Below are positions 6,001 through 9,000 of a stretch of 14,166 nt of DNA, piece by piece. This DNA is from a virus. Made by a program: the position numbers. The first letter of the stretch is position 1. Every line of letters starts with the position of its first letter. The stretch lies in UHGV virus genome UHGV-1666497; one strand, written 5' to 3'.

Positions 6001-9000
6001 GATGGTATCCCTTATGTTCTGGTGTTACTGGGCGTGTGTACGGGGAGTAAGAGTGTTGAGCGTTATCTGCCGGAGGTGAAGACATTAACCCGCCTGGCTG
6101 GCGGACGCTGGGCCGAATTTCATACGGCAAGACGAGGATTTATCCGGCTGGGAAAACGTCTGGGCTTTGAGCGAATGCCGGATGATGAGGATGGCTTCAT
6201 GGTGTTCAGGATAGCAGTCTGACTGCCACTGTATTCATCATCGAGCGTAAACCAATTGCAATTCACATTCTGACCCTGCTCCGGCAGGGTTTTTTGTTAT
6301 CTGAGGAGCCATTATGGGCGGAAGTAAAGGTGGTGGTGATACCAAAGTAAAACCAACAGCAGCGCAAATAGCACAGGAAGAGGTGGCCTGGAAAGGGTGG
6401 CAGGATTACAAAAATATTCTCCGTCCGGCAGAAGATAACTTCATGAAAAAGGTCGATGACCTTAACAGTGAGCAGCAGTACGACAATATTGCTGGCACCA
6501 CAAATCTGGGGTATCAGAAACAGTTTGGCAAAGCACGGAAGGAGCTGGCGGGTAATCTTGCTCAGTCCGGTGTTGACCCGTCCAGTGGTCGCTTTAACGC
6601 GGTAATGAATGCGAACCAGAGTGATCAGGTAACCGGGCAGATTGACACAACCACACGGGGGCAGGTATCGCAGGCAGATAAGTATGTTGCCGGGCTACAG
6701 GATGTTGCGGCTCTCGGTTCCGGTCAGAAGGCAGATGCGTTACAGAGTTTTAACTCCCTGGCTGACAGCAGTCTGGCAAAAGCCAAATCGGATGCACAGG
6801 CGGCGTTTACGAAACAACAGGGGCGAGCTTCTCTTGTTGGCGCTGGTCTGGGAGCTGTAGGTGCGTACGCGATGCATAAGGCTGGCGGTAACGGAGGTGG
6901 TGGCGGCGCTAAAACGCCAGGCACCGGCGCTAATGCTATTCAGCATCAGGCTCAGAACTGGAGACTGTAATTATGGAGTATGGCAAATACGAAACTCTCG
7001 CAAGGGCTGGTTATTCAGGCGCAGCCCGCCCACAGGGTGACTGGCAGACATCCGCCGCGCTGACACGCCAGCAATACGACGACTGGCGAACCAGATATTT
7101 GCCCCGCGTGGCAAGGCTGGCTGACCTTGGTGAGAACAACAGCCTGATGAATGCACAGCTTGCCCGGGTAGGTGGCCTTGCCACTTCCAGTCTCCGTACA
7201 GCGCAGATGGCACAGGATAACCAGATGGCGAGATACGGGGTAAACCGTCCGGATAATCCCAACAGTAACACGCTGGGTTTACGTAATGCACTGGCAATTG
7301 CTGGCGCGAAAAATGGTATACGGGAAGCAGAGCAGGATCGCCAGATGAACATACTGACTGGTGCTTCTGCACCTGCAAGACAGCAACTGAGTGTTGGTGG
7401 ACAACTGGTGTCAGGGTAAGGGGAACGATATGGGATACGGTTTACTGGATATTGCGAATCAGTCACGTCGAGAGGCATTACAGGGAATAAGTGACGCCGA
7501 CAGGCGACGTGAAGAAATTGAGGCTGCTAACAAGCAGATGGCGGCGCAACAGAAAGCGCAGAACAAGCAGAATATCGGTACGGGCATTGGTACGGGGGCG
7601 GCTATGGGCGCTGCCGTTGGTGGTCTCCCCGGTGCGGCTATTGGTGCAGTCATCGGTGGCCTTGCTGGTTCTTTGTTTTAAGGAGTGGTGAATGAGCGGA
7701 TTTGCACAGGGGTTACTTGCCGGATTCAGCACCGTTGACCAGGCCATGACCCGTCGTAAGGAGCTTGGTCTGCGTGAAGCACAGCTTGCTCAACAACAGA
7801 AAAATAACGAGCGCGATTTTGAATTTGCGCAGTCGCAGTTTGAGCATCGAAAGGAAAATGATCAGCGTACATATGATCTTAATGTCAAAAATGCCGATCG
7901 TGAATATGCGCTGAAAGAGAGGGAACACGCCGCAGCGCAGAATTACCGGAATGCGTCACTTGGCATTTCTCAGCAGAGGCTGCAACTGGAAAAATACAAC
8001 CAGCGACGGCTTGAGTATAACGATATGATTGCCCACAGCCAGCCATTAATGACAGCGCTTGGAAAAGCAATTGATGCTGGCGATCAGGAGGCTGCAATGC
8101 GTATTTACGGGCAGTTACCAAAGGGACATCCATTAACTCTTATGTCAAGTGAAGGCTATGCAGCGAAAGCGGGTCAGGCCGTGAACAACCTGCAAAAAAT
8201 CTTTGATGACAAGCCGGACAGGGCGATCGCTTCACTCAATACCCCGGAAAGTCTTGATGCGCTTTCTGGTGTGTTTGCCCCGGAACTGCAACAGCGTATT
8301 GGCATGCCCGATTCAACCGGGAAAAAGACGATAAAAGAGGCCAGGATTGGCAGTATCGTACCGGCGCAGCAGGAAGGGTACGTACTTATTGGCCTTGATC
8401 TCACATACAGCGATGGCTCCACCGCGCATAAACCTGTAACAGAATACGGCAGTGCACATCCTGATGATCAAACCGTGCTGGCGGTGCCTGTTGATAAGGC
8501 TGTTGAGCTTGTCAGGGATCGCAGTAAATTCGCGGAAATTTCGAAAAATTTCGGTTATTTCACGCCGAAGCAGGAGGGGCTTTCTCTGAAAGATATTCAG
8601 AAAGAAGCCAGCCAGGTAGCAGCGGAAGCGATCAAGAACGGCGGTAATGCTCAGGCTGCGAGGGATGAATTTTTAGCTGCGCATGGTTTACCGGAATATC
8701 AGCAGAAAATTCAGCAACAGAAATTTGAACAGCTTTTACAGAAGGGGCAGACCTGGGCGGAGGGCGATCCGGTCAAACTGGAGTTTGTCAAAGCGACTGC
8801 CGCCAATATGCCAGCCTTGCTGGAACCGGGGCGTGAAAAGGAACTGGAAATTTGGTACCAGAATCACCTCCGGGATAAAAAAGCCGAACAGGAAAAAGCG
8901 AAGAATTATAGCGCTGCTGCATCAGCCGAAGAGATCAGAGGCTGGATGAAGTAAAGTTACGCGGCAGTAACGCGCTCCCCGTTAATATCGTTCACTTACG

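Follow-up and report, generated by a model that had tools for sequence, protein, structure and literature searches.

A stretch of 14,166 nucleotides (nt) from the virus genome UHGV-1666497 of UHGV, referred to below in its entirety as the window, carries at positions 7430-7681 a gene for a glycine-zipper protein of 83 amino acids (aa). This is a late-operon gene located in a fixed block, and the other products of the block are abundant virion proteins that are missing from the cryo-electron microscopy (cryo-EM) map of phage phi24B. The explanation that best accommodates the data, advanced here tentatively, is that the 83-aa protein is a small accessory internal-virion protein, of the ejection or pilot type, of phi24B/GP4-type short-tailed phages.

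The surrounding operon, treated as unknown in an earlier sequence-only reading of the window, was assigned by its database matches to the late structural (virion) operon of a Sepvirinae prophage of the 933W/Sp5/phi24B type, i.e. a Shiga toxin (Stx) prophage. Positions 6300-9100 match 186 phage records at 80-98% identity, all of them Stx-converting or related Escherichia/Shigella podophages, with the best nucleotide match to PhiR12_3 (98.1%). The gene and the parts of the operon on which its interpretation depends are as follows.

687-2390: nozzle gene, matched to PDB 8jov (Ralstonia phage GP4) with E = 5.7e-55
2387-3655: central fibre/needle gene, from gene order and PHROG matches
5821..6222, + strand: 133-aa gene (Sp5 ORF75), first in the conserved block, from synteny in Aeromonas, Citrobacter, Pectobacterium, Yersinia and other loci
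6314..6970, + strand: 218-aa gene (Sp5 ORF76, phi24B gp51), virion protein, matching phrog_611 and phrog_8003 'virion structural protein'
6973..7419, + strand: 148-aa gene (Sp5 ORF77, phi24B gp50), virion protein, matching phrog_596; its stop lies 10 nt before ATG 7430
7418..7425, + strand: ribosome-binding site AAGGGGAA, read from the sequence, 4 nt 5' of ATG 7430
7430..7681, + strand: gene for the 83-aa glycine-zipper protein, stop codon included, from translation, phrog_594 match and pN/pS
7692..8954, + strand: 420-aa gene (Sp5 ORF79, phi24B gp48), essential virion protein, matching phrog_601; it starts 10 nt after the stop of the 83-aa gene
9040..14079, + strand: gene for the giant LPD5/LPD1 polyvalent protein (Sp5 ORF80, phi24B gp47), matching Pfam LPD5 and LPD1 and positions 1-1690 of 2793 of phrog_616

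The order nozzle, needle, (133), 218, 148, small gene, 420 and then giant is kept across relatives, the giant gene being counted where a locus extends far enough or a homologue is detectable. Among 38 related loci, which represent about ten genera, 36 have the small gene between the 148-aa and 420-aa genes. These include all 12 viral loci (Aeromonas phage phiARM81mr and 11 IMG/VR contigs) and 24 of 26 prophage loci (Citrobacter, Aeromonas, Yersinia, Pectobacterium, Brenneria, Edwardsiella, Oceanisphaera, Pseudaeromonas and others). Its product shares 31-59% identity with the window copy across the syntenic loci and 31-45% in the 11 IMG/VR contigs. The gaps in the window are 10 nt on each side of the gene, and in numerous loci the open reading frame (ORF) called upstream ends at or past the start of the small gene. 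The block that runs from the 218-aa gene through the giant gene, in which the small gene is now firmly placed, takes up ~11 kb of a 62-kb genome in intact relatives.

Gene fusions connect the small protein with the same neighbors. In one metagenomic protein, residues 1-58 of the small protein are fused to a sequence homologous to the 420-aa neighbor (E = 1e-29). In another, P0150, a phrog_8003 'virion structural protein' domain (E = 2e-5) is followed at its C-terminus by the complete module. Since phrog_8003 is also matched by the 218-aa neighbor, the latter fusion links the module to the family of that neighbor. BLAST comparison of the fusion proteins P0116 and P0150 with the 148-aa and 218-aa neighbors gave weak matches (E 0.045-0.056), no viral loci were found for P0150, and the upstream fusion evidence is only suggestive. 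The fusions could be assembly or gene-calling artefacts and hence are used as supporting evidence only. In a few relatives, e.g. a Zobellella taiwanensis prophage (L026 5985-7880) and protein P0055, the small and 420-aa genes appear to be merged or to overlap in different frames; merged genes of this kind could be real fusions, frameshifts or assembly errors.

Published virion proteomics of phi24B provides copy-number estimates for the products of this block (bioRxiv 10.64898/2026.04.10.717836). Each virion is estimated to contain ~22-41 copies of gp51, ~36-73 of gp50, ~30-55 of gp48 (421 aa) and ~19-35 of gp47 (2,811 aa); all four proteins are abundant yet fall outside the cryo-EM structural model, and gp47 was proposed to be an ejection protein (10.64898/2026.04.10.717836). 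The orthologue of the 83-aa protein, gp49, was also detected in these virions (6 counts in batch hydrolysis and 13 overall, with EALQGISDADR among its peptides) and was not modelled in the map (10.64898/2026.04.10.717836). This peptide is identical to residues 16-26 of the window protein.

The detected gp49 was classed as a probable contaminant 'based on functional annotation', and its count equals that of the adaptor gp62, which is present in 12 copies by structure (10.64898/2026.04.10.717836). It was thus the 'bacteriocin' annotation that caused gp49 to be set aside in the phi24B proteome, and no profile model supports this label above threshold. Our own arithmetic with the length-normalised formula of the authors gives ~6 copies of gp49. 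A tryptic digest of the protein offers four usable peptides only, residues 47-83 forming a single 37-residue hydrophobic peptide, and therefore mass spectrometry probably under-counts it.

Functional data on the neighbors come from in-frame, marker-free deletions made in Sp5 by Mondal et al. 2016 (PMC5155283). ORF79 (420 aa) and ORF80 (giant) were essential, and the mutant heads were filled with DNA and lacked binding of the tail-fibre antibody; deletion of ORF76 (218 aa) left the phage infectious at a strongly reduced level (PMC5155283).

The 83-aa protein matches phrog_594 with E = 1.7e-42, its residues 1-83 aligning to profile positions 1-85 of 85. Its orthologues are 933W L0132 (ST933Wp70), Sp5 ORF78 (ECs1240, 83 aa) and phi24B gp49. 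A word-indexed homologue search with the 83-aa protein returned close E. coli relatives only, whereas an exhaustive HMMER search with the family profile against 1.84 billion representatives gave at least 227 cluster representatives (50% identity) at E <= 1e-3. Among the matches listed, nearly all family members are 76-97 aa long and match end to end. Across 187 phage records the database annotation is either 'bacteriocin' or hypothetical, the RefSeq name being 'bacteriocin', and no functional study of this gene was found in the literature searched by locus tags and database name. The gene family is thus already catalogued; to place it among the internal proteins of podophages is a new, though unsurprising, step.

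The translated product of 7430-7681 (+) is MGYGLLDIANQSRREALQGISDADRRREEIEAANKQMAAQQKAQNKQNIGTGIGTGAAMGAAVGGLPGAAIGAVIGGLAGSLF*, and its 34 C-terminal residues (50-83) are GTGIGTGAAMGAAVGGLPGAAIGAVIGGLAGSLF, exactly as given in the sequence-only reading. The protein can be divided into four parts.

7430..7573, + strand: N-terminal part (codons 1-48), composed of M-x-YGL(I/L)D, a short amphipathic stretch and a very polar Q/E/K/R-rich helix
7583..7609, + strand: glycine ladder 1 (G52, G56, G60), from family column counts
7619..7630, + strand: turn G64-G65-L66-P67, consensus G-G-P-x, from GGP in 30/40 members and a break in the AlphaFold2 (AF2) model of a 97-aa member
7631..7678, + strand: glycine ladder 2 (G68, G72, G76, G80) and C-terminal L-F, from column counts and the Gly-zipper_YMGG match over residues 50-82

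The zipper glycines recur every four residues at 52, 56, 60, 64, 68, 72, 76 and 80. The tail contains 8 GxxxG motifs against 3.5 +/- 1.3 expected (p = 0.0009) and 16 small-xxx-small motifs against 11.2 +/- 1.5 expected (p = 0.0017), where the expectation was obtained from 10,000 composition-preserving shuffles of the same 34 residues; the periodicity therefore exceeds mere richness in glycine and alanine. The zipper glycines stand out as the best-conserved columns when 40 family members are aligned, namely G56 and G72 (40/40 each), G68 and G76 (39/40 each) and G52 (32/40). Other columns include G60 (29/40), a small residue at position 80 (35/40), F83 (35/40) and the G-G-P turn (30/40).

No signal peptide was detected, the mean Kyte-Doolittle hydropathy being negative in every 19-residue window starting at residues 1-44. 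No lipobox was found either; the N-terminus (MGYGLLDIANQSRRE) is polar, and cysteine is absent from the whole protein. The hydropathy profile places the residues of the amphipathic stretch at L5, L6, I8, A16, L17, I20 and A23. The earlier description of a small glycine-zipper protein without a signal peptide is thus upheld by both the motif excess and the hydropathy profile.

In the length variants of the family (79, 80, 83 and 97 aa), all insertions and deletions lie between the two ladders, just before the turn at columns 60-63. Because the indels are confined to this position, a helix-turn-helix describes the zipper segment better than a single long helix does. Examples of the variants are found in phage PA28 (L005 3001-3294) and in proteins P0006, P0007 and P0051, and the loop represents an indel hot spot. 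The AF2 model of a 97-aa family member, built with 58 aligned sequences, shows an N-terminal helix (pLDDT 93-96), a disordered low-confidence loop and a separate C-terminal helix. For the window protein AF2 gives one continuous helix with zipper pLDDT of 51-64, which does not decide between hairpin and straight helix.

A similar glycine stretch had been noticed in the giant protein, and it is indeed present and conserved.

10258..10314, + strand: giant-protein residues 407-425, a glycine stretch of period 4 that is conserved among homologues (more than 20 giants)

This stretch, EGAAFGAAMGAPFGAVAGY, contains G-xxx-G four times and is followed by RGRR and then by an acidic proline-rich linker. 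The glycine ladder and the basic residues are kept at the same position in more than 20 giants from Aeromonas, Pectobacterium, Citrobacter and other genera. Glycine-rich hydrophobic stretches were observed in three proteins of the block, i.e. the 83-aa, 218-aa and giant proteins. In the 218-aa protein the last ~50 residues contain the glycine/alanine-rich LVGAGLGAVGAYA followed by GGNGGGGG. Direct comparison of the 83-aa protein with the 218-aa and 420-aa proteins revealed no significant similarity.

In the mechanism proposed here, the N-terminal part of the 83-aa protein would dock to other internal proteins (the 148-aa, 420-aa or giant protein), leading to co-packaging. The marginally hydrophobic glycine-zipper hairpin would remain soluble or protein-bound inside the capsid and, after release via the nozzle, may insert into the outer or inner membrane of the host. 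There it could self-associate, or pair with the comparable glycine-rich segments in the 218-aa and giant proteins, and such a hairpin assembly might help to anchor or seal a trans-envelope conduit for the giant protein and DNA. Marginal hydrophobicity would be in keeping with a protein that remains in solution until membrane contact and then oligomerises in the membrane. The role would be auxiliary, as a close homologue can be deleted and plaques on E. coli K-12 persist.

An unlikely extension of this scheme is that, once ejected, the zippers of the 83-aa, 218-aa and giant (407-425) proteins come together in the host envelope as a hetero-oligomeric helical ring or pore. Such a ring would be SlyB-like and built from outside the cell, with the small protein setting its size or sealing it, and would define a new type of podophage ejectosome that passes a protein of ~2,800 residues as well as DNA. 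Short-tailed Stx phages, which bind BamA, spread Shiga toxin genes. For their small gene, common and dispensable in the laboratory, the analysis provides a corrected annotation ('bacteriocin' being unsupported) and a testable role.

Comparison with known systems places the protein closest to ejection proteins. As with T7 gp14/gp15/gp16, P22 gp7/gp20/gp16 and N4 gp51/gp52 with the giant virion RNA polymerase, the gene belongs to a late operon and lies beside tail genes, and its neighbors are packaged in the capsid and invisible in symmetric reconstructions. Ejection proteins of the T7 and P22 types have predicted transmembrane helices yet are soluble before ejection (PMC8954989), and those of N4 are described as accompanying a giant ejected protein of ~3,500 aa (PMC8954989; PMC13434306). 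The 83-aa protein differs from these ejection proteins in that it has no sequence similarity to them, is much shorter (83 aa vs ~200 aa or more) and has a glycine-zipper hairpin rather than several conventional predicted transmembrane helices. In contrast to the classical ejection proteins, on which infectivity depends, its orthologue is dispensable in Sp5, and ejection in the present case is a proposal. Among the functional options raised in the sequence-only reading, the link to ejection proteins fits the data best, while toxicity and abortive infection found no support.

Other resemblances concern the zipper itself. It resembles the hydrophobic glycine-rich segments of siphophage tape-measure proteins and tail-associated lysins, which are presumed to pass into the host membrane when DNA is delivered, but the 83-aa protein is free-standing and belongs to a podophage. 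The zipper weakly matches phrog_167, 934, 794 and 10093 (tape-measure proteins) and phrog_1047 (tail-associated lysin) with E between 1e-3 and 1e-2. Only P0045, a 220-aa product that reads through into the gene downstream, reached ~1e-10 in these tape-measure/lysin matches, which are composition-driven. Two further virion proteins, T7 gp6.7 and H, the DNA pilot protein of phiX174, exit the capsid upon infection; a sequence relation of the 83-aa protein to them is not expected. The H protein has transmembrane ends and a long helix that oligomerises into a DNA conduit. The two GxxxG ladders joined by a short turn are shared with two-transmembrane glycine-zipper lipoproteins (SlyB, YfgH, OsmB, YiaD), of which the SlyB zipper domain is described, in a preprint that refers to the SlyB cryo-EM structure, as residing in the outer membrane and forming 11-mer rings (bioRxiv 10.64898/2025.12.22.696046). 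Unlike these lipoproteins, the 83-aa protein has neither signal peptide nor lipobox, its zipper is C-terminal and follows a long polar helix, and its gene belongs to a phage virion module.

Apart from phrog_594, searches of profile and structure libraries gave the 83-aa protein no assignment above threshold. The best Pfam match, Gly-zipper_YMGG over residues 50-82, scored 28.1 bits against a cut-off of 28.9, and the other Pfam zippers were also below cut-off (Gly-zipper_Omp, 15.9 vs 25; Gly-zipper_OmpA, 15.3 vs 27). NCBIfam returned sub-threshold zipper matches only (PdsO, YiaD, E492 microcin), and Rfam nothing above threshold. A PDB sequence search with the 83-aa protein and the 40-member profile yielded nothing significant, the best match in the zipper region being an OmpA-family chain at E = 0.32. 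The same search with the 420-aa and 218-aa neighbors found nothing, and only the nozzle was matched (8jov).

Several points weigh against an accessory ejection role. The gp49 signal is low and also equals the counts of Lom and Bor (10.64898/2026.04.10.717836), outer-membrane proteins that probably entered the virion preparation via contaminating vesicles. The case for virion residence of gp49 is accordingly suggestive and falls short of proof. In Sp5, ORF78 had its own deletion primers, leaving MGY-SLF, and the dORF78 mutant is outside the nine non-plaquing and two reduced-infectivity mutants, forming both plaques and lysogens (PMC5155283). As this mutant is viable, the small protein is not required for K-12 infection in the laboratory. 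No solved structure or characterised homologue emerged from the searches made. The zipper is of borderline hydrophobicity, its best Kyte-Doolittle window being 1.69 (family median 1.54) and a rough, position-independent Hessa-scale sum being ~ +4 kcal/mol. A membrane protein is plausible from the sequence, and insertion of the zipper into a membrane would be a step that is not confidently predicted. Furthermore, the proteins were modelled by AF2 as monomers, and confidence was low across the zipper (pLDDT 48-70).

The prophage copy in the window also argues against function at this locus. The giant gene is homologous to ArgO145 as far as 14079, and the last 87 nt of the window (14080-14166) correspond to the end of the insertion sequence IS100 (IS21 family), being 100% identical to ends beside istA in many plasmids. 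The insertion cuts the giant gene off near codon 1680 of ~2,793, and the ORF runs on to a stop at 14139. With the giant truncated and its Sp5 orthologue essential, the prophage is probably defective here, and the module is probably not functional in this copy.

The rival that survives best, though still fairly unlikely, is a late assembly factor or chaperone that is anchored in the inner membrane, organises or holds the internal proteins (148-aa, 420-aa and giant) while virions are assembled and is not packaged, so that the virion peptides would derive from co-purifying vesicles. Low phi24B counts equal to those of Lom and Bor are what such a helper would produce, and a hydrophobic C-terminal tail without a signal peptide resembles a tail-anchored membrane protein. 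The conserved place beside the internal-protein genes and the dispensability in Sp5, which is common for assembly helpers, are equally compatible with it. However, the gp49 signal equals that of gp62, a genuine 12-copy protein, despite only four usable tryptic peptides, and the marginal hydrophobicity disfavours efficient constitutive integration into a membrane. In addition, the fusions set the module on virion-protein domains, and no precedent for such a helper was found in the literature searched.

A membrane-perturbing factor for timing or competition is very unlikely by comparison. It could be holin- or antiholin-like, depolarising, or a late superinfection exclusion factor that blocks the conduit of related phages, and small size, the absence of a signal peptide and a viable deletion would all agree with this. 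Membranes can be damaged by glycine-zipper peptides, and the literature includes a glycine-zipper effector of a T7SS. The gene nevertheless lies outside the lysis cassette, embedded between virion-protein genes with 10-nt gaps, and no promoter-like site was found 5' of it in the window sequence. Its position is conserved in 36/38 distant loci, whereas morons vary. Likewise, dORF78 is not among the Sp5 mutants that gave more plaques or lysogens than the wild type (dORF69, dORF81, dORF86-90) (PMC5155283). The zipper protein that the sequence-only reading described is real, but the phenotype predicted for it is weak; the in-frame Sp5 deletion is viable.

A bacteriocin- or microcin-like toxin or abortive-infection effector, as implied by the RefSeq name of the orthologue and by a resemblance in small size and glycine/alanine richness to class IIc bacteriocins and microcins that is the source of that name, is scarcely credible, since the matches to Bacteriocin_IIc (18.2 bits vs 27.1), MccV (microcin V; 12.4 vs 27) and E492 microcin (14.5 vs 50) are all below the curated cut-offs and cover the glycine-rich stretch only, there is no double-glycine leader (no GG occurs in the first 48 residues, a conserved polar helix), no export or immunity genes adjoin (all neighbors are virion proteins), PADLOC gave only a noise-level match for the 83-aa protein (Csx1, E = 0.007) and none for the neighbors, and the location in the structural module is fixed across genera.

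The 83-aa gene is a real coding gene under purifying selection, as documented by pN/pS and by the virion peptide of phi24B. Relative to 933W/ArgO145 it has 16 synonymous and 9 non-synonymous differences (pN/pS 0.19). Codons 1-48 contain 8 synonymous and no non-synonymous differences, and all 9 amino-acid changes from the 933W allele are in the zipper; the gene itself is intact. The M-x-YGL motif that opens the protein also opens its homologues, identifying ATG 7430 as the family start. A longer 96-aa ORF from GTG-7391 was rejected as an over-extension, because the starts of homologues agree with ATG 7430. Two antisense ORFs of 64 aa (7459-7653, - strand) and 89 aa (7478-7747, - strand) overlap the gene and probably arise only from the zipper's series of GGN/GCN codons.

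The remaining features of the window are outside the conserved block or concern its neighbors. Among the matches listed for the 420-aa protein in a homologue search, only E. coli was represented, at identities of at least 79%. Two small genes lie between the needle gene and the gene for Lom. Two further features lie between the needle gene and the conserved block.

4654-5391: gene for a Lom-like outer-membrane protein
5624-5764: 46-aa MokW/hok-like ORF

No Sok-like RNA was detected near the MokW-like ORF at the Rfam gathering threshold. Neither Lom nor the MokW-like ORF occurs in the distant loci (the Aeromonas phage and metagenomic relatives), and both are therefore regarded as insertions (morons) outside the conserved block. 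Strong terminator-like hairpins with T-runs at 6272-6291 and 9000-9019 (+ strand) flank the 218-aa, 148-aa, 83-aa and 420-aa genes, with none in between, and late transcription in these phages is presumably Q-antiterminated.

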